64,000 bases of DNA from Nanobdellota archaeon (GTDB taxonomy: Archaea; Nanobdellota; Nanobdellia; Woesearchaeales; DATDXC01): contig JBDRFR010000069.1 of assembly GCA_043818675.1 (NCBI GenBank), positions 14,877 to 78,876 on the forward strand, in the 5' to 3' direction. The notes below the pieces were generated by a model that saw only the letters and a program-made list of their open reading frames with translations, did not search any database and was not told where the DNA came from. Below are positions 2,482-28,500 of the stretch, piece by piece (position 1 is the first letter of the stretch; each line of letters begins with the position of its first letter). The position numbers were made by a program, and so were the translations under genes.

Positions 2482-2700
2482 ATGTTAACAGAAAAGGAAA
2501 TAGAAGTATTAAAACTTAGAAAAAAGGGTTTAAAGCAGACAGATATAGCCAAAAGCCTCTCGATTTCTCAGCCTGCTGTCTCTGCTTTTGAGCGCAGTAT
2601 TTCACGCAAGATAAAGTCTTCAATAAGAATCATCTATTTTCTAAAAGAGGAAAAAATCGATCCGGTAAAATATTCTAAACGAGTCAAAAATGTTTACTGA
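2482..2700 (+). CDS. small Tfx/LuxR-type HTH DNA-binding protein (72 aa)
   Basis: LTEKEIEVLKLRKKGLKQTDIAKSLSISQPAVSAFERSISRKI matches the archaeal Tfx N-terminal / sigma-70 region-4-like HTH pattern. It is a tandem paralogue of the next gene. Confidence 0.7.
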   Translation: MLTEKEIEVLKLRKKGLKQTDIAKSLSISQPAVSAFERSISRKIKSSIRIIYFLKEEKIDPVKYSKRVKNVY

Positions 2701-2881
2701 TAAAGAGATACAAGTGCTAAAGCTAAGAAAAAAAGGGTTAAAACAGATAGAGATAGCAAAAGCGCTGAATATTTCCCAGCCTGCTATATCATCTTTTGAA
2801 CAAAACATTGCCCGCAAGATAAGATCTTCAGTTGAGGTATTAGGATTAGTCAAAGAGCTGGGCATTGATATTGAAAAATGA
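2690..2881 (+). CDS. small Tfx/LuxR-type HTH DNA-binding protein (63 aa), tandem paralogue
   Basis: FTDKEIQVLKLRKKGLKQIEIAKALNISQPAISSFEQNIARKI. It overlaps the upstream paralogue by 11 nt, and its stop overlaps the next start (ATGA at 2878-2881). Confidence 0.7.
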   Translation: MFTDKEIQVLKLRKKGLKQIEIAKALNISQPAISSFEQNIARKIRSSVEVLGLVKELGIDIEK

Positions 2882-5133
2882 ATAAACCTAGAAAACACAA
2901 AAGCGATGTAATATTTCTGCTAATTGCACTAATAGCTTTGATTGTCATAGGCCTGTATATAGGCCCTGCTTATACAGGCTATGTTACATCAGTCAAGACT
3001 TTCACTTATACAGACTCGCTTGGTATTGAAACAAACAAAAGCATTGACAGGTTATGGATCGTCAATAACGCAACTGAAATGAATTCAGTTAGTCTAAGCG
3101 GCAGTGTTTCACTAGAAGGCACTGCTAAAGTATATATTGAATCAGACAGCATATCTTATCTGATTTTTGACTCTGAACTGGTAAAAGAAACCCAGGGCTT
3201 ATCAGCTATTACAACCATTATACCTTTTGAATCAAGCAATGTAAATCTAGAGTACTGTCCTGGCTCTGTATACGATTCAGACAATGACGGTGTTGAAAAT
3301 ACAAACGCGATTATTGACTTCACAGTAAACCAAAGCGGCTTTTCACTAAATAGAAATAATCTATGCACCAGATGGTCTGTCTTAAGCTTAGACAACGGCA
3401 CAAAAACAACTGTTTGTTACGGCGACAGGCTGTGCTGCAATTTCATCGGTCTTGTTCCTTCTGCAGCATCATGGGATAATGTATTCTACCTGAATTATGG
3501 CGCATATAGTTCAACTTACAATAATATTGTAAGTGCCCAGATAATCTCTGTCGACTACAATTTAAGTTTAGATAACCCTTATACAAACATTAGTTATTCA
3601 GATTCTGAAAATTTGTCAGCATCATTTATCCCTGCCAGCGTATCTTTTAACGATATTTGCATAGAAACCTGCTCAGTGAATTTCAACGGATCTATGTATA
3701 ATCTGATTATTGAAGCAGACGGAGCCAGTATAAATCTTGATACAATAAGTTATACCTCCTTAAAAGAGATACCCAACACTGCCCCTGTCTTTGACCATAT
3801 CCCATCATTTAAGATTGATAAAGAGCTAAAGATCAATTTATCCGATTACGCGTCTGACCTGGACAACGACACATTAGATTTTATTGCCTCTCCTGCTGAT
3901 AATCTGTCAATCCGCATTTCAGGGAGTATAGCATCCATTATGCCTGATACATCGTTTATCGGCAAGAGATATATCTACTTTGTAGCAAATGATACTATTG
4001 ATATTGCAGTTTCCAACACAATTGAGATTAACGTTGGAAGGGATGTAGTTGTCAACAAGTCAGAATCAATTAAGCAAGGTGTAGCTGTTATCGGTAAGCC
4101 AGTAAGATGGGTAAAAAGCATCAAGCTTAACGATTCAGTCTATAATATCAGCGTCAACATATCTGATGATGCTATTAATTTTTCTGTTAAGAACGTAAGG
4201 TATGGCTTATCTGAGAGTATTAACTCAAGCAGCATAAAAGTCATCGATAATGGAAAAGAAAAGAACGTAACAGAATACATTAACGATAAAAAAGTAGAGA
4301 TCCTTGAAAAAAAGATCCAGAAATTAGAAGACGCAAAAAAATACAAAACCAAAAAAGAACTTACAGAGATAAACCAAAGATTAACCGACTATAAAAATGA
4401 AAAGAATAAGATAACTGGATATGCAGTCAGTCAACAATATGAAGGTATATTAACCAGGTTATATGATTGGATTTTTAATGTTGGCATAACAGGCAATGTT
4501 GTATTCGAACAAAACCAATCTTCAGCAAACAATACCCAGCTGATCATTGGCGAAGTGGTTGAAGAGTTAGAGATCGAATACTATACAGAAGGTCCGATCG
4601 CAACAGAAATCAATATTTCGCCTGATAAGAAACAGATCATTGTAAGTTCTGATATACACTATGAAAATATCCTGACTTATACCTACCTGCAGCCAGAAGC
4701 AGAAAGAAACGCATTAAAACTCTTCTGGCTTGTAAATGACACTAAAAAACAGGTTAACTTTTCAGCATTTGATACAGACTCAGACGGCTTAATTGACTAT
4801 ATACAATGGATAACGCCAAGCCTTTCTAACCAGACTTATGAATTAGAGATAACAGTATTAAACGTTCAGTCGTATCCGACAGTCGGCGGGAACTGGACTG
4901 TAGAGTTTGAAACTTCTGGCAGCGCAAATCTGACCATTAGTGCTTATTCACAAACAACATTTGCAGAAATTTATGATAATTCATCAACAGAAGATGACCT
5001 GGAATTTTTAGAAGTGAAATGTAATTCTACAATTTTGAATGCTTCTGTTGTTCTAGAAGATGGTACTGTTGTTCCATATGAAGTTTATCTGAAAATTAAA
5101 AGGATCAAAGAGATTGATGAGGTGCTTAGATGA
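2878..5133 (+). CDS. membrane-anchored/secreted surface protein (751 aa), paralogous at its N-domain to the 1342-aa protein
   Basis: N-terminal anchor KSDVIFLLIALIALIVIGLYIG. A Cys-rich conserved domain is shared with 58418-62446. A cadherin/Ig-like segment is present (NTAPVFDHIPSFKIDKELKINLSDYASDLDNDTLDF), plus a coiled-coil stretch KKVEILEKKIQKLEDAKKYKTKKELTEINQRL. Many N-x-S/T sequons. Confidence 0.75.
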   Translation: MNKPRKHKSDVIFLLIALIALIVIGLYIGPAYTGYVTSVKTFTYTDSLGIETNKSIDRLWIVNNATEMNSVSLSGSVSLEGTAKVYIESDSISYLIFDSELVKETQGLSAITTIIPFESSNVNLEYCPGSVYDSDNDGVENTNAIIDFTVNQSGFSLNRNNLCTRWSVLSLDNGTKTTVCYGDRLCCNFIGLVPSAASWDNVFYLNYGAYSSTYNNIVSAQIISVDYNLSLDNPYTNISYSDSENLSASFIPASVSFNDICIETCSVNFNGSMYNLIIEADGASINLDTISYTSLKEIPNTAPVFDHIPSFKIDKELKINLSDYASDLDNDTLDFIASPADNLSIRISGSIASIMPDTSFIGKRYIYFVANDTIDIAVSNTIEINVGRDVVVNKSESIKQGVAVIGKPVRWVKSIKLNDSVYNISVNISDDAINFSVKNVRYGLSESINSSSIKVIDNGKEKNVTEYINDKKVEILEKKIQKLEDAKKYKTKKELTEINQRLTDYKNEKNKITGYAVSQQYEGILTRLYDWIFNVGITGNVVFEQNQSSANNTQLIIGEVVEELEIEYYTEGPIATEINISPDKKQIIVSSDIHYENILTYTYLQPEAERNALKLFWLVNDTKKQVNFSAFDTDSDGLIDYIQWITPSLSNQTYELEITVLNVQSYPTVGGNWTVEFETSGSANLTISAYSQTTFAEIYDNSSTEDDLEFLEVKCNSTILNASVVLEDGTVVPYEVYLKIKRIKEIDEVLR
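3253..3630 (+). other. conserved Cys-rich domain (copy 1 of 2 in window)
   Basis: DSDNDGVENTNAIIDFTV...LCTRWSVLSLDNGTKTTVCYGDRLCCNFIGLVPSAASWDNVFYLNYGAYSSTYNNIVSAQIISVDY aligns by eye with DNNSDGVEGDKSVIDFTV...LCTRWEILSVDTNKMTTVCYGNNVCCNFIGLTATKNKWNDIFYLNYGQYDASVNNKVSARVLYVDY of the 1342-aa protein. Confidence 0.7.
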
Positions 5134-7518: not shown

Positions 7519-10500
7519 TTGATTATGGCTGCTAGTTGGTTGAATAAAGCAGGGAAAAGTAAGGTTTTGGTAGCTTTAGCTTTGTTTTGCTTACTGTTAG
7601 GGATGTTTGGCGTAGGGTTATATAATGTAGGAGCCAGTCAAGACGAACTACTAATTGAAAGAGAGAACTTGATTAATGAGTTAGGGAATTATTCATATTT
7701 ACTAAACACATCACTTAAGATTGATCATATATTTGTTGAGAATTATTCTTGTTCTTCAGTTGGATATCATACTGTTAAGGTTTTGACAGAAGGAGTGCAT
7801 GATCAATTATTTAAGTTTGGTGATGTTAATGCGTCAGCGCATAATCTGGCAACGTATTCATCCAGTATAACCAATAACACGATAATATGGTATCATTTCA
7901 ATAATGATTCTTCTGTATATGAGAATTATGGAACTGAAGAGTTAACTGCAGAAGATAGTATGGTTTTATTATTCCACTTTAACAATGATTCTAGTGTTGG
8001 TGAGAATGATACGCATGTTTATGATTTTTCAGGGAATGGGAATAATGGAACTGTGACAGGTGCTGTTTATAATTCTAGTGGGAAGTTGAATGGAGCGTTT
8101 GAGTTTGATGGTGATGGGGATTATGTTGGAACAAATTTTAATACAGATATCCAGAACTTTACTGTTTCTGTTTGGGCTAAAAGTCTGTCTGCTCCAACAA
8201 CAGGGGGTGTATATACAGCGGTTCTAGGAAGGGAGGAGAATTTTATTATTTACTGGGATGCTACAAGTGGCACATTTGATGCTACTGTTGCTTATAGGAA
8301 TTCAGCGGTTGGATGGACAGCTTCTGATTTTGGTCCTGTAAGTGCGAATGTATGGTATCATATTGTTGGGACTTACAATGGAACTACTTTGATTACTTAT
8401 AGAGATGGTGTTGAAATAGACACTTCTACATTTGGAGTTCCTCAGAGTACTTCTGATATGTTAGCAATAGGGGATTCTAGGGTTGGAGCAGGAAATTATT
8501 TCAACGGCTCAATAGACGAAGTAGCAATCTGGAACAGAAGCTTATCCGCAGCAGAAATAAAAGGCATTTACATGAGAGGGCTACCTGCACATGTTTATGA
8601 TTACTCACAATATAATAATCATATAAAAGCCAACAAAACTGATCCGTTTGAGCCAACCTTTACAGCAGCAGGTAAATATAATGGAGCGTTGGAGTTCTCA
8701 AAAGATGATTATCTAATTAAGGACAATTTCACATTAGTCGGCGGAAACGGAACAATATCATTCTGGTTCAAGCTCAAAAATAATTATGATTCAGCCAAAG
8801 ATAAACATATGATACCTTGGGAATACAGGGAAGATGATACCCCAAATAAAATGGTCATCAGGTTTGACGCAGGGACTGGCCAGTTAAGGCTTATAACATA
8901 TCCAGGTTCAGATGTACTGACAGATTCAGATGCAACTTCTTGGACAGCAGGTGTCTGGCATCATGTTGCATGGGTACATAACACTACCCATACTGTGATG
9001 TATGTAGATAATGTGTTACAGTCTGATGTTGACACAGCAACAGTTTGGTGGAATGACTTTGCAACAGAAAATAGTACGCTGTATATTGGAGCCGAATATT
9101 ATAGTGGAAAAATACAAAGTTACTTCAACGGAACAATAGACGAATTTATGTTATTTAACAGAAGCTTATCAGCAGCTGAAATATCAGACCTTTATGGTGG
9201 AAAAGCAATAACAGGATTGACTATATGGGATGATTCTGATAACAAGAAAGTATACGCAAATTACACTAAATTCTATGCAGACTATAATGACTCAAGCGCT
9301 AAGACAGCCATATACGGCGGCGGAAGATGGTGCGAGTTTGCGTTTAATAAGACAAACCTAGACTGGAGCATATATACCTACATCAATATGACCTTTAACC
9401 CCAACACATTAAGATATGAATTGATAGCCGATGGCGGTTATTTCAATAACCAGACAGAAAAACACATAGATGGTATGCCAGCTGGACAGTATTATTATAA
9501 TATATCCTGCTATGATGAGACTGGAGTTTATCAGAATGTTTCAGTTGTTGATTTTGTTAATGTTTCTGAATATGATACAGGTTTAGGTATTACGACAAGT
9601 GTTACTGCGCCTGATGTTAACCAAAATGTTATTTTTTATGCAAACTATTCAAGAAATGATGTTTGGGATGTTGATAATTGGGTTTACGGTAATGAGATTG
9701 GGAGGGTTGTGTGGAATAGTAGTTCTATAGGTAATGAAAGATATTATGATGCTATCCCGGCAGTGTTTGTTGATTTTGACAACGATGGTAAAAAAGATGA
9801 ATTTGTTATCTCTGATGGTAACTCAGGGACAATATATCCTTTTTATTCAAACGGTTCACAAATGGAATGGACAAACACACAACAAGGATATGACTCTGCA
9901 GAAATATCTGTTGGAGATTTGGATAGGGATGGTTATGAAAATGAGATAGCAGTTGGAGATTGGCTGAGCGGAACAAGTGATGTGATAATAATTAATGAGA
10001 CAGGTGCAACAGTCTGGTCAGCTGTGAGTAATGGACAGCCAATATATGCTATTGAAATTGATGATTTAGAAAATGACGGATCTCCAGAAGTTGTATTCGC
10101 TAAGACTACAGTCTTAAGCGTCTATAATATGACTGGCTCAGAAATTTGGAATTATACTCTGCCAAATTATGCTTTGGAAATAAGAATGGCGGATGTTGTG
10201 GGGAATGAAAATAAAGAGATTATTGTAGCTACTGCTTATGGGGATAAATTGATGGTATTTAATTCCTCCGGTACTAATTTATGGAACTATACTAATGGAA
10301 ATGATCCGATTTCGATTGCATTCGCAGATATTGACCATGATGGTGTTGATAACATTATTACAGGGATGAGGACCGGAAACCAAGTATATGCAATGAATGG
10401 TTCAGGATCTATGCTTTGGGGAGGGAGTAGTCTTAGCGGAGTTGCCGGACAGATAAATGAGCTTGCCACTATGGATTTGGATGGGGATGGGTATGAAGAT

Positions 10501-13500
10501 GACATTGTGGTCGGAGACCAAGCTGCTGTTAAAGGATATGATAACGATTCAACCAATCTATGGAATTTTAATTTACCCTCGGATGATATATCCTCAATCT
10601 CCGTAGGAGACATCGATAGCGATGGTGATAAGGAGATTATTGCAGGGGGCCTTACAGACGGTACAGTATGGGTACTTAATAGAACTGGCAGCTTAGAATT
10701 TAGCTATAAAATTGGAACCGGCCATATTGGAAATACCTTCTATGCAAGCTCTCCATCAACTGATATTTCTGATGTTAATAATGATGGAATAAATGATATA
10801 GGTGTTGGTATCTATCTAACTAGTGATGATAGTTATGGATATATCTTCCAGGACGTCTCCTGCACAATAAAATTCAACGATTCTGCAACTATTTATAACA
10901 TGACATGGGATTACGTTACTGACAAATGGAATTACTCAAGAACGTTTTCGAATAATGTTGTCTATGCATATAATGTAACCTGCAGTAAAGGTGGCTATGT
11001 AACTCAAATCCAGGAATCAACAGTTGATTTAACACAGACCTTAATAATATGGGACGACTCTAACTCAAAAGTAACATATGCAAATTACACCAAATTTTAT
11101 GCAAATTACACCAAATCAAACGGAACCCCATTGACAGGCAGCGGTGAATGGTGCGAGTTTGCATTCAATAAAACAGGCCTTAACTGGAGCTTTTATACCG
11201 CCTATAACATGAGCTATAATCCAACTACAAAATTATACGAGATAATTGCTGATGGCGGCTATATTAAAAATAACACAGAATCGCATATTGGCGGGATGCC
11301 TGTTGGCAATTATAGCTTTAATATTTCCTGCTATGGCGGCAAAAACTTAACAGCAACAGACACAGTAAATGTTGCTAAGTATGATACAGGTTTATCTTTA
11401 ACACAGTCAAATGTTCATGCTGATATTAACACAGATGTTGAGTTCTTTGCTAATTACACAAGAGATACTGTATGGAATGTGGACAACTGGTTCAGAGATT
11501 CAGGAGAAATTGGCAGAGTTATATGGAATAGCAGTGATGTTGGAAACAGTCTTGTTGCACTAAGACCAGCTGACTTATCTAATGACGGATATCTGTCTGA
11601 TATAGTTACAGTAAATGACTACAAGATTATTGCACACTATCAAAACGGATCAGTAAGGTGGACTTTTTCAACTGGAGTTATCCAACAGGCAGGATCCTTA
11701 AACATTGTCAATCTGGATAACGACGGATTTAAAGATGATATAATTACAAAATTCTCTTATAACATATTTGTCCTTAATAAGACTGGTGATCAACTAAACA
11801 AAACAACTGTTGCAGACGGCGGTTGGGGAATTGGAGTTGCTGGTGATGCAAATAATGACGGAATAGAAGATGAGTTAGTAGTATCAGGCGTAAATTCTAA
11901 TCCGGCAATATTATACAATATATCTAACAGCGGACTTTCTGTTGTTAAACAATGGAATTTTTCAGTACCAGATGATATGAGGGAAGTAATATTCGGAGAT
12001 TTTGACTCAGACGGTTTGGATGATGATTTTGCAATTAGTGGAGTTGATTCAGGAAAAGGAACTTATGTTTATAAATGGAACGGGACAAATTTATTTAATG
12101 TAACTTATGGTGGACTTGCTATTGCCAAAGCTGATATTGACCATGATGGTTTTGAAGATGATATAGTGATTGCAGAAAACGGCAATTATCTTGTTTATTC
12201 TTTTAATGGAAGCTATAATACAAAATACACAAGCACAGATGAAGCAATGGTATACAATACAGATCCAATATCAGTATCCGCAGAGATGATTGTACTGGAT
12301 TTGGATTCAGACGGATTTAATGATGACATCATACTGGGAGATAGAGGCGGAGCAGCTGGACCTGGAATTGTCTGGGCATTTGACAACAATAGTATTGGAT
12401 TGTGGAATATCACATTACCTGCAAACGGAGATGATGATTACATCTATTCCATGGTCGTTGATGATTTTAATAACGATGGTAAACAAGAATTGATCTTTTC
12501 CAGTGAAGAGTTTGATAAAGTTTATGTTGCCAATCTGTCAGGATATGTACTTTGGGACCAGATCATTGGACAAGGAGATATCTCAGTGATTAAAGGAAAA
12601 TCTCCTGGCATCATAAGTATTGACATAAATAAAGATGGAATTTCTGATTTTGCGACCGCTTCCGCAAATGGTTTTGTCCATGTTCTGCAGGACGTATCCT
12701 GCACAATCCAATATGAATCAGAAGGTGGAGAGATTAACAGGACTGGTCAGAATTGGGAAAATGGTTTAGTTGCTCTATATCATTTTAATAATGAGTCTGC
12801 ATATGGCGAAACAACTGTTGGAGTTAATAATGTAACGTATGACTTTGCACCAGGTCACTGTTATGATAACGAAACAGAAATACTAACTAATGAAGGCTGG
12901 AAATTATTTTCAAAATTAAATAAAACTGAGCAAGTAGCAACATTAAATCAGGAAACAAAAGAATTGGAATGGCAGCATCCAATGGAATATCAAGAGTTTG
13001 ATTATGACAATGATATGTATAAGATTATATTGGAGGATGGATCAGATTTACTTGTTTCAGAAAAACATAGGGTTTATGGAAAATCAGTAAGCATCATCGT
13101 GATGAGTGAAATCTTCAAAGATGATCTTATTTTCTCTGACCTGGAAAGTCAGGACAAAATGCCCCACATGAACTCTTTTGAGATGGCTCAAATCCCCTTT
13201 GAGGTTCTTAAGGTGATTGATGGTGACAATATCCATTTCAGAAATTTGGATAATTTTTCTACTCAAAGCTTTGAAGAGAACAGGGTCTTTTCTCTTAATC
13301 TTGATCAGAGCCTTATCAATCTTGGAAATGTCAATATTCATAATTCATCCAGCCACTTTTTTAGTTCTTCGGGAGTCATTGCCTTGCCTTTAGCTGGGTC
13401 TTTAGATATTTTCTTTAACTTTTCTATGAACTCAGGCTTCATAGGAAATTCATCTAATGGATGCCAGTCAATAGATTCACAAAACTGCTCATCTTCCCTA

Positions 13501-16500
13501 GTTAGTTTCCTTGATACACGAAATTCTTCAAATATTCTTCGCTTGTTCAATTCCTCTCTAGCTGCTTCAGACCAGTTTATCCATGGAAATGCTTCAATTC
13601 TTGCCTTAAAGGATTTGTCTACAGGATATATTATACTAGCCATTTATAATTCACCCCTTGCCCTTAATTTTTCTAATGCTTCTAATTTCTTAAGCACACC
13701 CTGTTTTGCAACTTCAGACCAATTAATGTCAGGATGCTTGTCTAACTTTGCCTTAAAATCATCAGGTACTGATATAGTAAACCTTTCCATTTTTGATGCC
13801 TCCTGGATGATACAAGATAATAAAATTTTGGGTTCATCCAACAATTGTATTACTAAACACAATTGTGTTTATAAATCTTTTGATAATTTCAAGTTGATGC
13901 CTATAACTGATGCGTATGGGCTAATCAATTCAGGAAAACAGGTTTATTTCCTGGATGGTTTTAATAATGAGGTTAAAGTTAAGTCGATTGTTAAAGAAAA
14001 GTACAATGGCAGAATATATGATGTCGATGTAAAAAATGATGTTGTTTTGGTAAGAAGGATTGATAGGAATAATCGCACAAATAATTATGATAAAAAAGCC
14101 ACGCAAGCAGGAAAAAATTCATGCCACAATTCTGGGAAATATTGTTATGATAAAAGGACTAAGGAAAACTTCTTTTCTGAAAATGAGGATGGTTTGGGTA
14201 TATTGAGTGAGAGGGGTTATGAAACTAATTATTATGGTATATGGTCTGGGAATAGCAATAACGGAACTATTTATGGTGCTACAGTTGATATGACTGGTGG
14301 GAAGTGGAATGGGAGTTTGGAGTTTGATGGGGCGGGGGATTATGTTGATGCTGGAGATACATTTGATATGGGAACAAATGATCTGTCATTATCTGTATGG
14401 TTTAAAACATCTGATAGTGGTTCAAAAATTAAAACAATTATTTCAAAATCTTATGCATGGGATACAGGTGCATATAATTTGATTATTACTGCTGGTAATA
14501 ATCTAAGACTTCATGCTGAGAATAATACTGGTCAGGGTGAAGTAGATATAATAAGTCCTCTAACTTATACTGATGGACAATGGCATCATGCAGTAGGTAT
14601 TTTTGATAGAGATAAAAATGCAATATTATATGTTGATGGATCTGAAGTTGGTTCAACAACAATGGCAAATATTCTTAATCAGGATCTGGATACTACCTAT
14701 TCATTTAGAATTGGAATGTCACATTGGAATAGTTGGCCCAGACCTTTCAACGGCTCAATAGACGAAGTTGCAATTTGGAACAGAAGTCTTTCTGAATCTG
14801 AAGTCTGGGACTTGTACATGTCGTCAGCACCAAAATATAACATGACATGGGACTATACAAGAAAGAAATGGAACCATACAAAACAGTTCACTTCATACGG
14901 TAATTATACTTACGGAATAACATGCGAAAAAGGCGGCTACACAACCCAAAGAAGCTCAAGTTATGTTGATCTAACCCAATCATTAACAATATGGGATGAT
15001 TCTGATTCAAAAACAGCCTATGCAAATTACACCAAATTTTATGCAAATTACATAAGATCAAACGGAACAGCAATGAACGGAAACTATTGGTGCGAGTTTA
15101 AGTTCAATAAGACAGGCAGATGGACAAAACCAGTCAATATGAGCTTTAATCCAGTAAGCTTACAATATGAAATAATTGCTGATGGCGGATATATTCAGAA
15201 TTCAACTGAAACGCATATTGACGGGATGCCTACTGGAAATTACAGTTACAATATCTCCTGTTATGGTGGTGAATATAAATCACTAACAGATACTGTAAAT
15301 ATAGCAAAATATGATACTGCACTTGCTTTAACCCAAACAAACATCCATCCAAATACCTATTCAGATGTTGAGTTCTTTGCTAATTACACAAGGGCTACTG
15401 TATGGGATGTAGACAACTGGTGGTGGGATACAACTGAGATTGGGAGGGTGGTTTGGAATACAAGTGCTCTTGGAGGGAGTTCACATACTGTTGATTTCTT
15501 TGATTGTTTGAATAGTGGAAAGAAAAATTGCCTTGCGACCACAGAATATTCTGATATCTGGATGTTTTATCCAAATGGAACACAGATTACAGCATCTGGA
15601 ACTGCCTCAAATCCAGGAGGAGATTTATTAGATGCTAATGTTTTTGACGGAGATGGAGATGGTTATGAAAATGAGGTTCTTATTGTTGGAGATAATAATC
15701 AGGTTTTAGTTGTTAACGAGACAAGAAATACTGTGTATACCTATACTGCTGGAGGAGATATTTTTTCTGTTGTTGGAGCTGATTTAGATAACGATGGAGT
15801 CAAAGATGATTTTGTTATTGGTGCTTATACTGGGTCTGTTTATCAGGTCATGGCATTTAATACTTCTGATGGAGTTAATTGGGTGAATTTTTGGAACGGA
15901 ACTGTTGGAGGAGTTATTCAGGAAATGGTTATTGGTGACTTTGATAGAGATGGAAGGGAGATTGATGTTGCTGCTACAGGGACTTCGAATGGAAATGTTA
16001 CTGTTTTTGTTGGGGATAATGGAACATTGATATTTAGTACTGTTGACCTTGGGGCATTATCTTCACTTACAGTGTCTGATTTGAATCATGATAATTACAA
16101 TGATGAGATAATCGTGGGGGAGACGGGTGCCACTAGGGTTCTTGCGTTTAGGTGGAATGGGACATGGGGAGCAGAAATGCAAGATACAGACAATGATACT
16201 AATGGTTGGCTTTGGTCAAACACTCTTCCAACATACAGTATTACTGAAATTGATACTTTTGATGCAGATTTAGATGGTTACAAAGATGAGATTATTTTTG
16301 AAGATGGAGGCAGTTCATCAAACTCAAAAATTTGGGCAGTGGATGAAGAGGGCAACTACTTGTGGAATTTTACATGGGGGAACACAATTGATGTTTCATA
16401 TAGTCTTAATGTTGCTGATGTGAATAACGATGGAAAGGATGAGATAATTTTTGGACCTAGGAATGCTGCTACATTGTATGTTTTGAATATCTCTGGAGAT

Positions 16501-19500
16501 TTATTGTGGAGTTATCCTCTTAATCAGGGTTGGATTGGTAATGCTTATGGAACTTCTCCAGGGATAGATATTTCAGATTTGAATAATGATGGTATAAATG
16601 ATATTGTAGTTTCAACTAATACTGTGGGTTATAAATATATTTTCCAAGACGCTAAATGCTCAATCCAATACGAATCAGAAGGCGGGGAGATTAACAGAAC
16701 AGGTCAGAATTGGGAAAATGGTTTAGTTGCTTTATTTCATTTTAATAATGAAAGTGCATATGGCGAAAACAGCAGCTATATTTATGATTTCTCAGGTAAT
16801 GATAACAATGGAAGTTGTACAGGTACAACATGCCCAACCTTTGATACAACTAGTGGAAAGTGGAATGGTAGTTTTGAGTTTGATGGCGTGGATGATTATG
16901 TTGCAATGTCTCAGGATGATAGTCTAAATTTTTCAGGAGATAGTGAGATTACCATTTCCTTTTGGGCTAAACTTGTATCAGCAGATAATAGGCATGCTGT
17001 TATTGGGGCGTGGGATGGTGAGTCTGGTTCTACTTCTGCTTATCTCTATATGGACAATTCTGGAGCTAATGGAATTATTATCAAGAATACAATAGGAGGT
17101 GATACTGGAATTAGAACATCAAGCACATCTTTTAATTTAAACACTTGGTACCACATAGTTTATACTTTTAATGGTGTCTTAGAGACAGTCTATCAAGATG
17201 GCACTCAAATTGATACAAATGATATAAGTGGAACCATGCGTAATAATGGTGAGACAGGTCCTTGGGTAGGTCATGCAATGAATGATGGAACAACTCCAGT
17301 ATATTTCAACGGCTCAATCGATGAAATCGCAATCTGGAACAGATCATTATCCGCATCAGAAGTTTGGGATTTGTATATGTCATCAGCACCAAAATATAAC
17401 ATGACATGGGACTATACAAGAAAGAAATGGAACCATACAAAACAGTTCACTTCATACGGTAATTATACTTACGGAATAACTTGCGAGAAAGGCGGATATA
17501 CAACTCAAAGAAGCTCAAGCTATGTTGATCTGACTCAGTCATTAACTATATGGGATGATTCCGATTCAAAAACAGTCTACGCAAATTACACCAAATTTTA
17601 TGCAAATTACAAAAGATCAAACGGAACCGCATTGAACGGTAATTATTGGTGCGAGTTTAAGTTCAATAAAACAGGTATATGGACAAAACCAATCAACATG
17701 AGCTTTAATCCGGTTTCCCTACAGTATGAGGTAATAGCAGATGGTGGATATATCCAAAACTCAACTGAATATCACATTGACGGTATGCCAAACGGTTATT
17801 ATGGGTATAATATAACATGTTACGGTGGTGATTATAAATCATTAACAGATATGGTCAATGTTTCTTTATATAATACAACTTTGGGAGTCAGCAGGAATAA
17901 TCTTGCGCCAGAGGTGAACGTTGTTACAACATTTTATGCAAACTATACAAGAAATGATGTATGGGATGTTGATAACTGGAAATTGGGACATGAGATTGGG
18001 AGGGTTGTTTGGAATACTAGTTGTCCAACATGCGGCAGTGTTTCTGCTATACCTGAATTTGTAGACTTCAATGAAGACGGTAAGAAAAGTGAATTATTCA
18101 TTCTTGCTGATGGTTTCCCTTATGCTATTTCAAGTAATGGTTCTAAGATCTGGACAAGTTCAACAGAGAGATATGTTCCTAGCCAAGCAGTAGCTTTTGA
18201 TGGAAATGGAGATGGATATGATAATTATGTTGTTGCAGTTGAGGATGTAAATTCTGGTTCAGGTATACGTGTGTATAACAGTACAGGGAATATCATTTGG
18301 GAATGCGGCTTTCCCGGAGACTTTATGTCTGTTGTTGCAACTGACTTAGATAATGATGGAAAGAAAGATGATTTTGTTGTAATTGATACATATACTCCTG
18401 TGGGTAATGTTTCCGCATATACTACTACTAACGGGCAAACATGGGTGATTAATTGGAGCCATATATTTCCAGCGACTAATACCGCAGATGGATCTATTAA
18501 GATAGGAGATTTAGACAACGATGGAAAAAAAGATGATTTTGCAATTGCAGGTGTGGAATATACGATTGCCCTAAATGAAACTGGAGGCGTTATATGGAAC
18601 ACAACTGACTTAGTTGATAGAGTAAATGGTGTTGGAATTGGAGATTTTGACCATGATGGTTATGAAGATGATGTGATTGTAGGGAATAGGGGATATTTAT
18701 ACATCTTCACTTTTAATGGAACTTATGGAGTTACATATACTACAAATGATGCAATTGCATCTTCTTCCTACCCTAACAGTGGAACACAATCAACTGTTAC
18801 TAGTATAGTTGTATTTGATTTGAATAATAATGGATTTAAAGATTCATTTGCTTTATCAGACATAACATATGATTCCATAGGTGTTTTTGACAACAATACT
18901 AATAATGTTTGGTTCCACAATACAAATGATTTTGGTGATGGAAGCATAGATGTAAATACTGTACGGGCAAGTGATTTTAATAATGATGGCAAAGATGAAC
19001 TGATGTTTGGTGCAGATAACGGGCTTATATATATTTTTAACAGCACAGGTTCTCTTTTGTGGAAATATGTTTTGATAGATCACGTGGGGGAGTCTTCTAG
19101 AGAGGATGCCGTTAAATCAGGCGACATCAATAATGATGGAATCTCTGATTTTGTAGCTGTCACTGTGAATTCTTACACTTACATATTCCAAGACGTATCC
19201 TGTTTCATAAGATTCAACGATTCAACATCAGTCTACAACATGACCTGGAACATAACTTTAGACAAATGGCAGTACCAAAGGACATTTCCTGACGTATCAA
19301 GATATAAATACAACATCACCTGCTCAAAAGGCGGATACATTACACAGTTTACAAACACTTCTTTTGCAACAGAAGACGGAAACCCAAGATGGAGTTCAAA
19401 TAAGACTAACCTAACAAGAAATTCACCATATTTAGCAGATGTCCATTTCAACATTACATTAAATGACATCAATCCAGCATCATACATATTCAGCTGGTAT

Positions 19501-22500
19501 AATGGGACTGCATGGGAGAATAATTCCCCTGTAAGTTATGATGATAATACAGAAATCTCTGTTACAAAAACATTAAACATAAGAAACGAATCTGCTGCTA
19601 TCAGCTGGACATTCTACTTTAATGATACTGTTGGAAATAATAATCAAACAGATGTATGGAGCATTACAGTTGATAATATACTGCCAAGGATAGATTATTC
19701 AGGTGGAACTAACGCAGATGGCGAAAACATAGCTAAAAATTATATTTATGTCAATGTATCAGTTACAGAAGAAAATGTTGATAAGGTATGGTTTAACCTG
19801 TACAATGATGATTATTCTTTGAACAAAAGCATGATACATGGTGAGTTACCAAATTATAGACCTGAGACTTATATTAATATGACCGGCAATGTACTTTTAA
19901 TGCATTTTAATAATGACAGTTCTGTTAGAGAGAATTCAACACATGTTTATGATTGGTCAGGTATGGGGAATAACGGGACTGTTTATTTTAATTCATATCC
20001 AAACCTAACAAACCCTAAGCTTGGTTTAGGAGCATTTTCATTTGACGGAACTGATGACTTTATCAATATATCTGACGTTCCATCATTAAGGTTAACTTCG
20101 ACAGGTACAATATCTATGTGGATCAAACAAAGCGGTGCAGACCAAGATCCATACGCTACATATGTAGGAAAAACCAGGGGTGGTGTGACAGCTACAATTG
20201 CATATATTCTTTACCATAGAGATTCAGAAGGTACAATTAGGGGAACTATCTGTAATGATGCTAACTGTGACTTGATCCAAACACAGGAATTTGCTCAATC
20301 AGATGTTGATTGGCATCATCTGGCATTTACATGGGACAGCGTAAACTTATCTTTATATAAAGACGGCATTTTGTTTAATAAGACCCCTCAAACCCGAAGC
20401 GTAGATAATGATGCAGGAGATCATCTCAAGATTGGCGGATATGGTTTCAATGATGTGGGAAGTGATGATTTCAGCGGTTTAATGGATGAGGTTGCAATCT
20501 GGAACAGAAGCTTAAGCGCAGATGAAATAAGAGACATATACGAGATCCAGAAATCTGCATATTACCATAACTTTACAGTATCAGACGGAACATATCATTA
20601 CAATGTTACAGTCAATGATACTTCTGGTAATCAAAATGTTACAGCAACAAGAAGTGTTTCACTGGATCCAACTTATCCTAAAGTTTCATTTGTCTCTCCA
20701 ACTTATAGTGATGGTAAGTTTACTAAGAATACTTCTATTCCAATAAATGTAACAATAACAGAAGCTAATCTTGACAGGATAATATATGAATGGGATGGTG
20801 TTAATGAAACAGACTTCAAGCTGGATGCGCCAATAACTGAAGTAAACTTTACAGTCTCAAGCTTAGAAACTTTAACTGTAAGTAACGGTTCCCATAAGAT
20901 TGATCTGTTTAATGATAGTTCTCTTGTGTTGGCTATGAGTTTTGATAATTTGTCTGCTCTTGGAGAGAATGATACTCATGTGTTTGATTGGAGTGGGGGT
21001 GGGAATAATGGGGCTGTTTATGGAGGAACTGACGCTGATTCTGGTTTCACAACGAGCGGGAAATATTCAGGAGGACAGATGTTTGATGGGGAGTGGGATT
21101 ATGTTTTTGTTAATGATTCAGATGTATTCAGTGGAAATTTGGCGATATCTTTATGGATAAATGCAAAACAATGGAGTACAGATGGAACACTGGTAAGAAA
21201 ACTAGATGAGTGGCAATTAGATATTAATGATGGTACTGTGGTTAGATTTTGTGATACTGCGGCATGTAGCGATATTGCTACTTCTGAATTGAGTTTAGGT
21301 AAATGGTATCATGTTGTGGGAATTAGAAATAGTTCTGGAGTAGAGTTATTTGTAGATGGGATAAGTCAAGGATATGTTGCAGACCCAATTGCTTCAAGAA
21401 CAACTAGTCATGTTTATATTGGTGCAGAGGAAGGAGCGTTTGACTTTTTCAACGGCTCAATAGACGAAGTAAGAATCTACAATCGTTCTCTTTCTGCCTC
21501 AGAAGTTGCAATGCTTTACAAATCTAATCTAAGAAAATACGACGTAAACAAATATAATTTATTTTTCAACCAATCAGGAAATTTCAGTTTAACCTACAAC
21601 ATTAATCAAAACACAACAATCAACCTAAGAAAAAACAGCACCAGAAACTACTGGCTGGATATCAATAAGCAAAGTTTAGCTGATGATTCCTACGCTTACA
21701 GAGTATTTACAAAAGACGACATGCAAAACTGGAACAGCACAGAGCAAAGAACAGTAAATGTTGACCTGGAAAGCAGGATTGTATTAGGCGATGACTCAAA
21801 CAACAAAAAAGTTTATGCTAACTACACAAGATTCTATGCAAACTTTACAGATGTTGAAAACAATACAATAAACGGTTCAGGGTATTATTGTGAGTTTGCT
21901 TATAATAAAACAAACCTGGCATGGAACAGATATACAGTAACAAACATGAGCTATAATCCAATTACAACACAGTATGAAATCATAGCAGATGGTGGATATA
22001 TACAAAATGCAACAGAGAGTCACATTGATGGAATACCTGTAGGACTTTATTATTATAATATAACATGCAAAGACTCAAGCGGGGGCTACACAGCAATCTC
22101 AACTGTTGACCTTGTTAATGTTTCTGAATATGACACAAACATAGCAGTAACCCAATCAAACATCCATCCAGATACAAACGCAAATATCGAATTCTTTGCA
22201 AACTATACAAGGGATACTATGTGGGATGTGGATAACTGGTGGTGGGATACTAAAGAAATCGGAAGGATTGTGTGGAATAGTAGTGAATATGGTGCGCTTT
22301 CAGATACTGTGTATTTTGTTAAGGCTATGGACTTAGATAATGATGGAGAAATGGATGAAATTGTTATAGGGGGTATACCCACCATGGAAGCTTTTAGTTC
22401 AAATGGAAGCTGGATTTGGTCAAAAGCCGTTCATAATTATGATACACATTTTGAAGTATGGGATCTAGATAACGATGGCTATAAAAATGAAATCTTAACA

Positions 22501-25500
22501 GGAACAAATGGGGGCGATGTAAAAATTATTAATGAATCTAGTGCAAATGTTGCAGTATGGAATAGTTATAGTTATGGGAGTAATGGGGGGACTATGATAT
22601 TAGGAGATCTAGATAATGATGGATTTAAAGATGATTTTGTAGCTGTAATAGATACAGGCAGCGTTAGAAAAATTCTTGCTTGGAATACCTCAGATTATGT
22701 AACCTGGGTCAATTTTTGGAATTATAGCCTTCCTCATGACATTTATATAGATCAATTAATAGTATCTGACTTGGATGGTGATGGGGATGATGATATCGCA
22801 GGCTCGGTCACTGCAAATGATCCAAGATCGTATACGTTTGCCTTAGTAGGACACAATGGATCCGTACTTTGGAATACCACATCCAATTATGACCAACTTT
22901 GTTATTCATTGATTGCTTTAGATATGGATCATGATGGACTTAAAGATGATATAATTACCGGTTGCACAGGAGATATACATAATTTTAGTTTAAATGGAAC
23001 TTATGGAGCAACATATACTCCTTCGTTATTTAATAATTCACCAACTGGAAATATTTTAGAAATAGCAGCGATTGATTTGGACAATGATGGATATGAAGAT
23101 GAGATTATTGTAGGTGATACAGGAGTTTATAACACTGGTCCAGGATATGTAAGAGCTTTTAATAAAAATGGAATTGAAGAATGGAATTTTGAATTGCCTC
23201 CCACAGGTATTGCTGATGGGGACGATATTGCATCGCTGGTTGTGGGAGATGTGAATAGTGATGGGAAAAAAGAAATAGTGTTTGGTAATGAACAGCTTGA
23301 TACAATTTATGTTTTAAACAAATCAGGATCATTATTGTGGGAATATAAAATTGGATTAGGTAATATCGGATCATCAAGCGATGAATCACCAGGTATTGAT
23401 CTGACTGATATCAACAACGATGGTATTCTTGATATTGTAGCTAGTTCACTAACAGGTTATGCACACGTTCTTCAAGATACAACATGTACAATTCAATACG
23501 AATCAGAAGGCGGAGAGATAAATAAAACAGGAACTAATTGGGATGATGGACTTGTAATGTTAATGCACTTTAATAATGAATCAGCATACGGTGAAACAAC
23601 AGCCGGAATTAATAATGTAACATATGACTTTTCAGGTAATGGCAATAACGGAACAATATATGGTGCAACGTTTAATGCAACCGGTGGTAAATGGAACGGA
23701 AGCTTTGAGTTTGATGGGATTGATGATTATATTGAATTAACAGATATGAACATTAATGATGAATTCACAGTTTCAATGTGGTTCAAAGCTAAAAAGTTAC
23801 AAGACGGCGCTACTTTAATTGGTGATTTGGACAATATTGGAGGTAATGAGGGTTGGTCCATAAGATACTTAACTTCACTAGGTAATGAATTGCACTTCAG
23901 TTTTGATGGAACTACATGTGGATGGACCAATTACGACCTTACTGGGATTAATCCGGATAATGACAACACTTGGCATTTTATTTCTGTTGTCTTTACAAAC
24001 AATACTGTCTCTTGGTTTTATGATGGAACTACTGAAGTTGATAGTCACAGTCAGCAATGTGTAGTTGAAGATTCTAATGAGAATATCAAAATTGGCGTCG
24101 CTTCCAGAGATACTTTCCCAATAAGTGCAAGCGGACACTTCAACGGCACAATCGATGAAGTAGCAATCTGGAACAGATCATTATCAGCTGCAGAAGTTTG
24201 GGACTTATACATGTCATCAGCACCCAAATACAACATGACATGGGACTATACAAGAAAGAAATGGAACCAAACAAAACAGATAACGACATACGGCAACTGG
24301 ACTTATGGCATAACATGCGAGAAAGGTGGATATGTAACCCAAAGAAGCTCAGGTTATATTGACATGACTCAATATTTGACAATATGGGATGATTCTGATT
24401 CAAAAACAGTTTATGCTAATTACACTAAGTTTTATGCTAACTACACAAGATCGAATGGAACTGCATTGAACGGTAACTATTGGTGTGAATTTAACTTTAA
24501 TAAAACTGGAATTTGGACAAATCCAGTCAATATGAGCTTTAATCCAACAACAACACAGTATGAAATAATCGCTGACGGCGGATACATACAGAATTCAACA
24601 AAAACGCATATTGACGGGATGCCGGTTGGAAATTACAGTTATAATATAACATGTTATGGTGGGGATTATAAGTCTCTAACTGACACAGTTAATATTGCTG
24701 AGTATGACACAGTTTTATCAATACTTAATGATACAGATAAAACTGTTGGAGAAAAGATAAAATTCTATGCTAACTATTCAAGAGTTGACCCATACAAAGT
24801 AACTAACTGGAAATTAGGTAAAGAGATTGGGAGGATTGTTTGGACTGATAATTTAACAACTGACACAGAATTGATATCTATTACGTCTTATGATATGGAT
24901 AAAGATGGAAAAAGAGATGAACTTGCAGCTGCGGTAAGGGATCAAAATACCGGAGAATTAGCCTATTTTTATCCAAACGGTACATATAAATGGATCTATT
25001 CAGTTTCCTGGGATTTTACAGAGAGCATATTTGCAGGAGATTTAAACGATGATGGTTACTATAACGAGATATATTATCCAATGGTGGGTGAACCCGCAAT
25101 ATTTAATGAATCAGGAGACCAGGTGTGGACAGGCAGCATCACTTACCCGGCAATGCAGTTTGAGGGAGCCTTACTTCTGGATATTGACGGAGACGGACAA
25201 AAAGATGATCTGGTTGTGGTAAATGCTACTGGTGTGTTTGCATATAATACATCTGATGGGATTACCTGGCATAATTTATGGAACTATTCTCACCCAATCA
25301 GTCTTGGCTTAAACAATCTGTGGGATGCTGCTTCAGGAGATCTGGATAATGATGGTAGAGATGATATTCTGTTGGGAACATATCTCCCTCCCAATTTATA
25401 TGTGATCAATTCCACCGGTAGTCAAATGTGGAATTATTCCTACATACAATACGGACTGGCAGTTGAATTGATAGATCTTGACAGTGACGGCAAAAAAGAT

Positions 25501-28500
25501 GAAGTTATCCTGGGTAGTCTATATCAAATTATCCATGGTATAAATGGGTCTGGCGGACATCTGTGGAACATATCTGGCGGAAATCTCAGGCATTATGAAC
25601 TTAATGTTCTTGACCTGGATGATGACGGATTTGAAAATGATTTTGTTGTAGGTGATGCCAATGGAAATGTCACAGCATATAATGCTTCTCTGACAAACCA
25701 TGACATGATGTGGTCAATTGATCTAAACGGGGTAGGGGCTAATGATATCTATTCAGTTTCAAATGCAGATATAAATAATGATGGAATAAAAGAAATTCTA
25801 GTGGGTGGAGAAGATGCAATTTTATGGGTTTTAGATAAGTCAGACGGAAGTGTCCTGTGGGATTATACTGTCGGAACAGGAGACATTGGATCAGGGGCTG
25901 GAAAATCCAGAATAACAACCACAGATATAAACAATGATGGAATAAACGAGATTATTGTGGCATCACGAACAAACGCACAAATCCACACCTTCCAGGATGT
26001 AAACTGCATCATAGAAATCAGCGACGGAACATCAGCTGACATGAATTATAACTCAACCTCCAGAAAATGGGAATACAATAAAACATTCATTATTGCAGCT
26101 GACTACGAATATAATGTAACCTGCACAAAGGGAGGATATACTGAACAGGTACAAAGCTCTACTTTATCAGTTGCAAGCTTAAGGACATATCATCAGCCGT
26201 CAGCTGTTTATTCAAACTATACAAGGTTTGTCGCTAATTTCACTGAAGGCACTGGCAAATGCAGGATGAAATACAATAAGACAGGCATATGGAGCAGCTG
26301 GCATAACATGAGCTGGAATGGGACGATAAACGCGTTTGAGCTTGAAGCTGACAATGGGTATAGAAGAGGGCATATGCGCTCAATGCCGGCCGGAACTTAT
26401 GACTATTATATTGACTGCAATAACTCTTTAGGCCAGGCTGTAAATGCAACAGATTCGATAACTGTAAATGATTATGATACAAACCTATCAATATCAAACA
26501 CTAATAATAATCCAGTTATCGACCAACCTATCATTTTCTATGCTAACTATTCAAGAGTTGATCCATACAAAGTAGATAACTGGAAATTAGGAAATGAGAT
26601 TGGACAGGTTGTATGGAATACAAGTGATATTGGCACAAATGCAAATGCGATCGCAGCCATTGACCTGAACAATGATGGAAAGAAAAATGAGTTAATAATA
26701 GTAATGGACAGTGATATTACTGGCTTGTATGCAAATGGCAGTGAGAAGTTCAGCCAGACTTCTGGCATAGGTAATTCAATCTTAGATATAGCTGTTGGTG
26801 ATTTTGACAATGATGGTTATGAAAATGATTTTGCAATTGTAAGAGGCGCAAGCACCCTCGAGGTGTTTAATGAAACAGGCCAGGAAGTATGGGAAAGCGG
26901 CGATTACGGATCTACGCCTGCAATACCGGCTATAGGAGACTTTGATGGAGATGGCATCAAGAATGATTTCTTTATGATGGATGGCGGAAGTGTTTTTGTT
27001 TTTAACTCAACAGAAGGAAAGGTTTGGAGCGAGAGATGCAGCATTACGCATGGTGCCAACGTTTATGCTGGATATGATGCTATAACAACTAGAATTTATG
27101 ATTCATCTAAAGATGATATAGTTTTTGTTTCCAGTGAGAATAGTGCAACACCTGGCATTTGGGCGATTAATACATCATCTATTGGAACATGCAAACAATA
27201 TTATAATGGTTCAGGGAATTTATTTAGATCACTTGATGTTCTGGATATTGACCATGATGGAATTGAAAATGAATTTGTTGTAGGTGAAAATGGAGATGTA
27301 CTTGTATTTAATTTAAGCTTAGATATAATCCTTAGTGATTCTACACCTGATGATAATATTTGGGAGATCAGAAAAATTGACCTGGATAATGATGGATTTA
27401 AGGATGATTTTGTCGCTTCAGAAGATAATCCTCCAAGAATCAGGGCGTATGATAATAATTCTGATTTGAACTGGACATTTAATACTGGCGAATCTGCAGG
27501 AGTGTCTATCTTTTCGATGGAAATAGCTGATGTTAATAATGATGGAATAGAGGATATTTTATTTGGAACAAGCACTGGTATTGTTTATGCTGTTAATATT
27601 AGTGGAAACTTAATGTATAAATATGATATTCAATTAGGAACAATCGGAAATGACAACTCAAGAGCTTCATCAACAGACATCTCAGACATAAACAACGACG
27701 GAATAAATGATGTAGCAGTTGCATCCTTTGATGGCTACGCACACATCCTTCAGGATTCATCCTGCACTATAAAATTCACAGACGGATCATCATACAACAT
27801 GACCTGGAACATAAGTAAAGACAAATGGCAGGCAAACAAATCATTCAGATTAGCAGGGACATACAGCTACAATATTACATGTAATAAAGGCGGATACATA
27901 TCACAAAACCTAACTGCAAGCATTACAGCTGCAAAACAAGGTTCATTCTGCGATTGGGGAAGCTTAGCTACAACATGCCATATTAATACAAGCATAACTG
28001 TAAAGAATAACTACCAATTAAACGCATCCAACATAATAATCCATGAGCTTGGAAACCTATACAATAATTCAGGCATAAGCTTCATAATAAATCTAACCGG
28101 AAACCTAACAATAAAAAGCAGCGGAACAATCAATTTATCCGCAGCAAACTGCGCAAGCGGAACTTGCACAAACGGCGGAAACCTGACAATTATTGCATCC
28201 ACATTCAACCTAAGCAGGGGTTCATTTATTTATTCCAATGGCGGCTCTTTAACATCTGATGGAACCAAGGGTGGTAGTGGAGGAATAATAAATATCACAG
28301 CCAGATCATTCTATTTTGACGGAAATATAACATTAGATGGTGGAGATAATGCAGGAACATACAGTACTGGAGATGGAGGCATAGGTGGCACCATGGTTAT
28401 AGATGTTAATACCAACCTTAACATAGGTGGTAATCTGCTTGGAAAAGGCGGAACCGGAAGATCAAACATCTGCGCTGCAAATAGCGGCAGCAGGGGTAAT

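Follow-up and report, generated by a model that had tools for sequence, protein, structure and literature searches.

In RTX adhesins of the LapA/MpIBP type a conserved N-terminal module retains a giant, repetitive, Ca2+-dependent protein at the cell envelope. Archaea are not known to have an outer membrane or a T1SS. The stretch of Nanobdellota DNA analysed here (64,000 nucleotides, hereafter the window) encodes a 751-aa protein (2878..5133, + strand) and a 1342-aa protein (58418..62446, − strand) that share one domain, here called X, and by analogy with the adhesins X could be a conserved N-terminal module that holds a very long repetitive surface protein at the envelope. This likeness goes with no sequence or demonstrated structural kinship, and here, in contrast to the adhesins, a TM helix serves as anchor and a membrane HerA/FtsK-type ATPase is encoded next door.

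Comparison of the two ORFs by BLASTP gave a single strong segment, aa 118-251 of the 751-aa protein against aa 28-163 of the 1342-aa protein, with 66 of 136 positions identical (49%), two gap positions and E=3e-39; outside this segment the comparison of the full ORFs gave only noise. The first copy of X therefore occupies 3229..3630 on the + strand (HMM E=4e-58, with an envelope that extends to aa 260, nt 3657) and the second 61958..62365 on the − strand, directly after the predicted signal peptide of the 1342-aa protein (HMM E=4e-60). When all six frames of the window were searched with tblastn and a 144-sequence HMM exactly these two copies were found, and neither the 12098-aa protein described below nor the rest of the window contained a third, divergent one. 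The shared domain of ~125 aa proposed in the first-pass annotation is thus borne out. The coordinates given there (3253-3630 and 61960-62330) fall within the domain as delimited here and miss a little of its N-terminal edge. For both proteins the motif quoted there and its C, C, CC spacing hold good; ‘Cys-rich’ is an overstatement, because there are just four conserved cysteines per ~135 residues. The only possible ground for suspecting chance similarity, low complexity or assembly duplication in place of a real domain is the AT-rich DNA with its N/S/T-rich protein composition, and nothing else supports such an explanation. A pair that is 49% identical at E=3e-39 is not a recent duplicate, the fold is predicted with confidence and there are hundreds of independent homologues in other assemblies; with 530 clusters of a library of 1.84 billion proteins containing the domain, chance is far from sufficient to account for the similarity, and we regard this explanation as ruled out for practical purposes. 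X is best seen as a self-contained domain on the outside of the cell, about 135-140 residues long and outside all curated families.

The 530 clusters were obtained by searching this library (HMMER) with a profile made from the two copies, and 485 of them matched at E<=1e-10, which rules out the possibility, raised with the original observation, of an orphan lacking homologues outside the contig. A word-index search gave no match for a single X domain and six short fragments for a 59-sequence profile, a sparse result that we ascribe to the index because the full HMMER search gave 530 clusters. The relatives that carry a name all derive from MAGs of Nanoarchaeota/Woesearchaeota, except one record labelled only ‘bacterium’, and X appears limited to DPANN archaea of the Nanoarchaeota/Woesearchaeota type, which are tiny symbionts; no relatives were found on viral contigs. 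In the metagenome scan for X loci, which was run with the class A alignment (A3), four source bins carried the label ‘uncultured Methanosarcinales’, which we treat as doubtful because with 29-34% GC their loci resemble those of Nanoarchaeota. In the alignment of 59 sequences X keeps 33-50% identity. Each protein has one copy of X near its N-terminus (median start aa 157) and 97 of the 150 best representatives have a hydrophobic N-terminus. The earlier statement that no known family could be assigned holds, and no confident match to a characterized domain was found by sequence: the whole 751-aa and 1342-aa proteins showed no Pfam-A or NCBIfam match on X at E<=1, 59 diverse X sequences scanned singly at E<=10 gave only scattered chance Pfam matches (two members or fewer per family), and the best PDB matches by phmmer/hmmsearch (E=0.18 for one sequence as query, E=0.12 for the profile) were both spurious. 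A full-text search of the literature likewise found no description of the X domain or of the arrangement of giant protein and TM-HerA ATPase. NCBI MFH1642031.1, which is annotated as a hypothetical protein and assigned to a Nanoarchaeota archaeon, has the same sequence as the 751-aa protein. Members of the family at present go under the label ‘hypothetical’ or bear names taken from PKD or LamG domains that they happen to contain. With at least 485 clusters, defined at 50% identity, and no curated entry the family is suited to a new Pfam-type entry. A single HMM marks the N-terminal ends of large and giant Nanoarchaeota/Woesearchaeota surface proteins, including fragments on short contigs, and also flags a conserved operon in which the gene of such a protein is joined with that of a membrane HerA/FtsK-type ATPase. 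For the study of attachment to hosts and their exploitation by DPANN archaea, X offers a compact, confidently modelled and expressible handle, with two predicted disulfides and a putative Ca2+ site. It is a useful new family with an ordinary beta-sandwich, which brings no new principle and overturns nothing.

AlphaFold given the two sequences alone returned an unusable model (pLDDT 34.9) and the 59-sequence alignment was needed, with which AF2 modelled X at pLDDT 92.5 and pTM 0.85. On this model X is strongly predicted to fold as a generic Ig-like beta-sandwich, a two-sheet Greek-key sandwich of ~9 strands plus a short helix that is superposable on Ig, FN3 and PKD domains; Foldseek found no significant match to it in the PDB (TM<=0.47). 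The structure prediction suggested in the first-pass annotation therefore yielded a confident model, but of a fold that is not exotic. The likeness to the Ig, FN3 and PKD beta-sandwiches (PECAM-1 Ig 5gni, FN3 modules, archaeal PKD 4xed) is one of fold class. In contrast to these domains X is larger, has its own C...C...CC pattern and a DxDxDG-like loop, stands singly and N-terminally instead of in tandem arrays and matches no Pfam profile; sequence signatures of FN3, PKD or I-set Ig domains, for example the PKD WDFGDG motif or the Ig Cys-Trp-Cys core, are absent from it, as judged by Pfam on the 59 sequences and by the cysteine pattern. The cysteines of copy 1 (3364..3438, + strand) are C163 (3364-3366), C180 (3415-3417) and C186-C187 (3433-3438), and those of copy 2 (62150..62224, − strand) are C75, C92, C98 and C99 of the 1342-aa protein, which are invariant columns in alignment A3. 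Exactly four cysteines (C-x16-C-x5-CC) are present in 137 of 144 domains. Three domains, from three lineages, lack C163 and each also lacks C186; this joint loss (3/3) points to disulfides C163-C186 and C180-C187, a 1-3 and 2-4 pairing that would differ from the single cross-sheet disulfide of Ig domains. In the model the predicted bonds would clamp the short CC-containing helix onto a beta-hairpin. Given the four near-invariant cysteines and the paired loss of C163 and C186, the disulfide stabilization supposed at the outset is almost certain.

At the N-terminal edge of X lies the sequence D133-S-D-N-D-G138-V-E140 (3274..3297, + strand), a putative Ca2+-binding loop. DxDxDG Ca2+-binding loops are said, as in Rigden and Galperin's survey, to be EF-hand-like loops that occur in many folds. 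Over 144 X domains the loop has the consensus D-x-[DN]-x-[DN]-G-[IV]-E, with an invariant D147 (144/144) after it: D133 is present in 141 (98%), position 135 is D or N in 94% and position 137 in 100%, G138 is found in all 144 and E140 in 135 (94%). At the level of sequence X thus has the DxDxDG motif together with the extra acidic ligand, at 94-100% conservation, and this suggests that the loop binds Ca2+. Its hydrophobic and Glu positions are spaced otherwise than in the canonical EF-hand loop of 12 residues, and no helix-loop-helix is predicted; one of the 59 sequences gives a weak EF-hand match in Pfam (E=0.02). One alternative is that X plays a purely structural, passive part, as a stable first domain which is rigidified by disulfides and Ca2+, acts as folding nucleus or spacer after export and has no specific partner. 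A generic Ig-like fold, such as the numerous PKD/Ig spacers of these proteins also have, and a position always just behind the export signal would suit this, but a spacer should be repeated and interchangeable with PKD/Ig domains, whereas X occurs strictly once per protein and is the only element common to two otherwise unrelated architectures. In addition ~20 positions are conserved at >=90% in the 144 divergent domains, including the polar N216, S241 and D147, and we consider a passive role improbable.

The 1342-aa protein (class A) consists of a signal peptide, X, an Ig/PKD array, a TM segment that starts near aa 1195 and, in the cytoplasm, a helical tail of ~130 aa, with X as the mature N-terminus. 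Its gene lies between those for a 101-aa ribbon-helix-helix (RHH) protein (62443..62748, − strand; RHH_1 E=1e-3, under the Pfam cut-off) and a 774-aa membrane HerA/FtsK-type ATPase (56097..58421, − strand) made up of an extracellular Ig-like part, TM, ATPase and coiled coil (Pfam DUF87/HerA_C). The stop codon of the RHH gene overlaps the start of the 1342-aa gene, and the stop of the latter overlaps the start of the ATPase gene (ATGA in both cases). The order RHH, X protein, TM-HerA ATPase is conserved: the ATPase is directly downstream in all four loci with downstream DNA (L013-L016), and 14 loci have the RHH gene ahead of a class A gene. The 751-aa protein (class B) has an N-terminal TM segment (aa 6-34), a pre-X module, X and post-X modules. 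A third gene encodes a 12098-aa giant surface protein rich in LamG and FG-GAP (7519..43815, + strand), which has no X of its own. Its C-terminal unit (41908..43695, + strand; pre-TM extracellular part, TM from aa 11617, HerA ATPase, coiled coil; Pfam DUF87/HerA_C) is paralogous to the 774-aa protein (44% identity over 607 aa, E=6e-160) and the paralogy takes in the extracellular part as well. No HerA ATPase gene was found near class B genes within the flanking DNA retrieved, and the link to the ATPase is for this reason established just for class A and this window. In the loci examined, the co-occurrence of X and ATPase asked about in the first-pass annotation is seen for class A and not for class B. 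That class B N-termini might be archaeal type IV pilin-like was rejected, as the class III signal (FlaFind-type motif [KRDE][GA][ALIFQMVED][ILMVTAS][ILMVTAS]) is present in just seven of 93 and the 751-aa protein does not match it.

X comes right after the signal for export, or after an anchor at the N-terminus, in large surface proteins. It may be a conserved docking or assembly module, constant on otherwise variable and often giant proteins, that would tether their N-terminal end to some conserved part of the envelope machinery of the cell itself, and it is probably not a variable host-recognition tip; we give this reading about an even chance. Its partner would most likely be the membrane HerA-type ATPase unit, by the extracellular part that precedes the TM, favoured because this unit is the other element common to the two gene modules of the window, and the second candidate is another X domain; either choice is inferred from gene content. 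The first-pass annotation took X, as a domain distal to the membrane anchor, for a candidate to contact the partner cell or the giant protein. Distal describes the 1342-aa protein, in which X is about 1030 aa ahead of the C-terminal TM, but not the 751-aa protein, in which it starts ~85 residues after the N-terminal TM and is anchor-proximal in sequence. Contact with the partner cell would make X a host- or substrate-recognition domain (a Ca2+-dependent lectin, carbohydrate-binding module or adhesin tip at the free N-terminal end), which is possible but distinctly less probable than docking. A conserved internal partner fits better than variable host surfaces, because at 33-50% identity over the 59 sequences X is the one invariant module amid otherwise variable architectures. 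Compared with Ca2+ beta-sandwich carbohydrate-binding modules (endoglucanase CBM, PDB 2c4x) X has 9% identity and no family match, and it is found on giant LamG/FG-GAP/PKD proteins, not on glycoside hydrolases. Among full-length class A orthologues (39-50% identity to the 1342-aa protein) X is one of the best-conserved segments (0.51-0.53 against a mean of 0.37). Several observations were counted against docking: no HerA ATPase gene was found near class B genes in the DNA retrieved, the N-terminal position of X in class A also suits a distal binding tip, an ATPase was never found in the same chain as X (0/150 best representatives), and among class B orthologues the conservation of X exceeds that of the other segments only slightly (0.38-0.41 versus 0.35).

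A bolder extension of the docking reading, which we think unlikely, is that the X proteins and the membrane HerA/FtsK-type ATPase units, free or fused to the giant, make up one undescribed, ATP-driven, Nanoarchaeota-specific envelope apparatus. X would then be the docking interface between each giant fibre, at its N-terminal end, and the collar that a hexameric pumping ATPase has outside the membrane. Macromolecules, either DNA or protein, would be reeled, extended or translocated by this machine between the symbiont and its host. Independently of this extension, the supposition that X is tied to the system of these genes is upheld by the ATPase that follows class A genes (4/4) and by class B-type proteins fused to LamG giants in relatives, and the same fusions lend indirect support to the suggested contact with the giant protein. 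In relatives the 751-aa-type architecture forms the N-terminal part of giant LamG-rich proteins: it makes up the N-terminal ~720 aa of single ORFs of 2400-3400+ aa in four loci (L034 and L057-L059), and in two more (L007 and L010) the N-proximal part, X included, opens longer ORFs.

BLASTP comparison of the 751-aa ORF (2878-5133, + strand) with the 1342-aa ORF (58418-62446, − strand) gave exactly one common region, in which residues 118-251 of the former align with residues 28-163 of the latter (66/136 identities, 49%, E=3e-39), the remaining segments being noise. This region, here called X (residue numbers below are those of the 751-aa protein), lies at 3229-3630 (+) and 61958-62365 (−) and therefore encloses the positions (3253-3630 and 61960-62330) at which the first-pass annotation had placed a Cys-rich domain shared by both proteins; the motif string and four cysteines (C, C, CC) described there match as well, and the shared domain is thus confirmed. 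These are the only copies in the window, whether it is searched by tblastn with both copies or in six frames with an HMM of 144 homologous domains, and the same searches found none in the 12098-aa LamG/FG-GAP-rich protein (the giant, 7519-43815, +). The archaeal contig is of low GC in the window (about 30-41%, mostly 32-39%), and among its genes are some that we take, from translations only, to be housekeeping (RFC large subunit, aRF1, aIF5A, a site-2 protease and a rhomboid).

A word index queried with a single copy of X gave no homologues. Full HMMER with a profile of the two copies was run against 1.84 billion cluster representatives; 530 proteins, 182 to 7172 aa in length, passed E≤1e-3, 485 of them also E≤1e-10 and 190 E≤1e-30, so that X is not the orphan that the first-pass annotation had allowed for. 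Each protein has one X, starting at a median of residue 157, and 97 of the 150 best matches have a hydrophobic N-terminus; X is an extracellular domain directly after the export signal, and it occurs in two architectures that have nothing else in common. The 751-aa protein itself is entered at NCBI as MFH1642031.1 (‘hypothetical protein [Nanoarchaeota archaeon]’, on an 89.7-kb contig), and the remaining named members come from Nanoarchaeota, Woesearchaeota or Nanoarchaeia MAGs, apart from one record labelled just ‘bacterium’, and are annotated as ‘hypothetical’ or after other domains (PKD, LamG, DNRLRE). Scanning one genome per species gave 12 X loci, eight in Nanoarchaeota/Woesearchaeota MAGs and four (L002, L003, L005 and L006) in bins labelled ‘uncultured Methanosarcinales archaeon’, with five copies in one MAG. 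Those four bins are probably mislabelled or contaminated, because the loci have 29-34% GC; their gene content is the same as that of the Nanoarchaeota loci. No X was found in viral contigs, and the distribution appears restricted to one DPANN lineage.

Conservation was counted over 144 X domains. G138, D147, C180, C187 and N216 are invariant, L124, Y126, D133, E140, C163, W166, G182, C186, W199 and S241 are 92-99% conserved, F155 is conserved at 91%, and 137 of the domains have exactly four cysteines. C163 is absent from three domains only (those of the representative proteins P0025, P0090 and P0141), and the same three are the only ones that have lost C186, a paired loss that implies a predicted C163–C186 disulfide and, by elimination, a C180–C187 one; to this extent the earlier view of X as disulfide-stabilised holds as a prediction. 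The loop at the N-terminal edge of the domain (Y-D133-x-[DN]-x-[DN]-G138-[IV]-E140...D147) fits a DxDxDG-type Ca2+ site, and we infer from this pattern that it may bind metal. AlphaFold gave a pLDDT of 34.9 with two sequences as input, and 92.5 (pTM 0.85) with a 59-sequence alignment; the latter model consists of about nine strands with a single short helix. In it one strand of a hairpin begins with C163, the other contains C180, and the vicinal pair C186-C187 falls in the short helix that follows, so that the two predicted bonds would clamp the helix to the hairpin.

X had been called unrecognised, and it remains so: neither Pfam nor NCBIfam searches with the whole proteins gave a match on it, PDB sequence searches with X were empty, and when 59 mutually divergent X sequences were scanned singly at E≤10 no Pfam family was matched by more than two of them. 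Structure prediction and Foldseek, which had been proposed at the outset, gave no confident match to a characterised domain (none in PDB at E≤1e-3, with TM-scores ≤0.47). Fold comparison placed the model closest to PECAM-1 Ig (5gni, 9.4), an endoglucanase CBM (2c4x, 8.5), complement MG domains (8.4) and many FN3 and PKD domains (7.3-8.2). The fold class is therefore an ordinary one, a predicted Ig-like sandwich, and the sequence family is new; X thus shares a very common class of folds but forms a new family by sequence, set apart by a predicted disulfide clamp and a Ca-type loop.

Proteins of the 1342-aa type (class A) consist of a signal peptide, X, an Ig/PKD array (PKD at 654-731), a single TM from near residue 1195 and a helical tail (~130 aa). 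Relatives keep this layout over their full length (50% identity to P0002 and 42% to P0006), and 12-13 of the 150 representatives have it. In the window ATGA overlaps join the stop of a 101-aa ribbon-helix-helix gene (62443-62748, −) to the start of the 1342-aa gene, and the stop of the latter to the start of the gene for a 774-aa protein (56097-58421, −) with an extracellular Ig-like part, a TM and a HerA/FtsK-type ATPase (DUF87 E=8e-12; HerA_C), for which the best NCBIfam match, the DNA-translocating ATPase CedD, is far under cut-off (34.6 vs 600 bits). When neighbourhoods were compared across 50 metagenome loci, a HerA-type ATPase 58-74% identical to that of the window lay directly downstream wherever the DNA ran on past a class A gene (four loci, L013-L016), followed in L013-L015, as in the window, by an HTH regulator and a homologue of a 246-aa secreted protein; the ribbon-helix-helix gene is upstream in 14 loci. 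The class A gene and that of a membrane HerA-type ATPase are thus tightly coupled within one conserved operon. In the window the secreted protein is one of four tandem paralogues of ~246 aa (51786-55228, −), which have no Pfam or NCBIfam match and adjoin an ArsR-like HTH regulator gene (55249-55881).

The 751-aa protein (class B) has an N-terminal TM (residues 6-34), a pre-X module of ~85 aa, X and post-X modules, and the pre-X and post-X modules are common to 77-90 of the 150 representatives. In four loci (L034, L057, L058 and L059) the 751-aa-type module forms the N-terminal ~650-740 residues of a single ORF of 2400-3400+ aa, and in L007 and L010 the N-proximal part with X heads ORFs of 2820 and >3582 aa, respectively; in L007, L010, L057 and L059 the X-bearing ORF runs on into LamG repeats resembling the N-terminus of the giant, and in L006, L043 and L055 a giant-type gene is fused or next in line. 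In relatives, therefore, giant surface proteins physically include the class B module, and from these one-ORF fusions the 751-aa and 12098-aa proteins look like the split form of one polypeptide. Between their genes (5201-7225, +) lie three others, a HEPN/nucleotidyltransferase pair (5201-5704 and 5701-6303, both +) and one for a 310-aa IS1-like Zn-finger protein. These may be mobile DNA that split the single ORF of relatives, although L054, too, has a homologue of the 310-aa protein downstream of its 751-aa-type gene. The 310-aa protein has an IS1/IS1595-type Zn-binding N-terminus and a PD-(D/E)xK-looking motif (GHIDIL...IFDYKP), with no Pfam match. In one relative (L001, JBDRQV010000149.1; P0104) the 751-aa-type module, including the TM, is C-terminal in an open frame of >2280 aa; two giant genes fused tail to head could account for this, as could a gene boundary that was missed.

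The C-terminal unit of the giant (41908-43695, +), a TM with a HerA/FtsK-type ATPase, is paralogous to the 774-aa protein (44% over 607 aa), the likeness taking in the extracellular part before the TM, so both gene modules of the window pair an X-domain protein with an ‘ectodomain–TM–HerA’ unit. The two modules are also side by side in L014, L015, L018 and L023. The giant gene is followed by genes for coiled-coil proteins (43858-45770), the first of which has a homologue after the giant-type ATPase end in the same four loci. X and an ATPase share a chain in none of the 150 representatives, and no HerA gene was found at class B loci within the DNA retrieved, where many giant ORFs run off contigs. 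The suggestion that X is specific to this system is upheld by the ATPase downstream of class A in 4/4 cases and by the presence of class B in giant proteins of relatives.

Since X and the ectodomain–TM–HerA unit are what the two modules have in common, the simplest model would be that X binds that ectodomain, or another X. X would then be a constant docking/assembly module, its binding holding the N-terminus of a long surface protein to the membrane ATPase, with the predicted disulfides and Ca2+ making it rigid outside the cell. We regard this overall statement as about evenly balanced: what it says of structure is very probably correct, and the particular partner named is a tentative choice, more probably wrong than right. 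It seems improbable that giant fibres and hexameric pumping ATPases make up an undescribed ATP-driven machine of the envelope, joined through X as docking interface. The first-pass annotation had X distal to the membrane anchor, which is correct in sequence for the 1342-aa protein but not for the 751-aa protein, where X starts ~85 residues past the TM, and had made it a candidate for contacting the partner cell or the giant protein; the fusions in relatives indirectly support contact with the giant, whereas contact with a partner cell is not favoured. We found no description of X or of the giant-protein/TM-HerA arrangement in the literature, and the value of X lies in the definition of a family and in the handle it gives on an uncharacterised surface/ATPase apparatus.

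The giant ORF also carries a 465-aa intein-like insert (12859-14253, +) that begins CYDNETEILT and ends GIWSGN, before S, with weak Pfam matches to Intein_splicing and Hint_2 that are under cut-off. On the opposite strand inside it are two small ORFs (13087-13344 and 13341-13643, −), one of 86 aa that is YafQ/RelE-toxin-like (NCBIfam E=3e-9, under cut-off) and one of 101 aa with a weak DUF2683 match; a toxin-antitoxin pair seems to occupy the homing-endonuclease place, the giant frame being open through their antisense. Finally, the motif [ILV]TG[FYNM][AVI] (‘ITGFAV/ITGYAV’) is ~10-fold enriched in X-domain proteins (71 seen against 6.75 expected from shuffles of the 150 representatives) and is found at residues 29-35, 512-516 and 537-541 of the 751-aa protein and 1170-1174 of the 1342-aa protein. 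It usually takes the form (E/K)P-x-ITG(F/Y), either right after the N-terminal hydrophobic segment or ~20 aa ahead of the C-terminal TM, and could be a processing or sorting signal.
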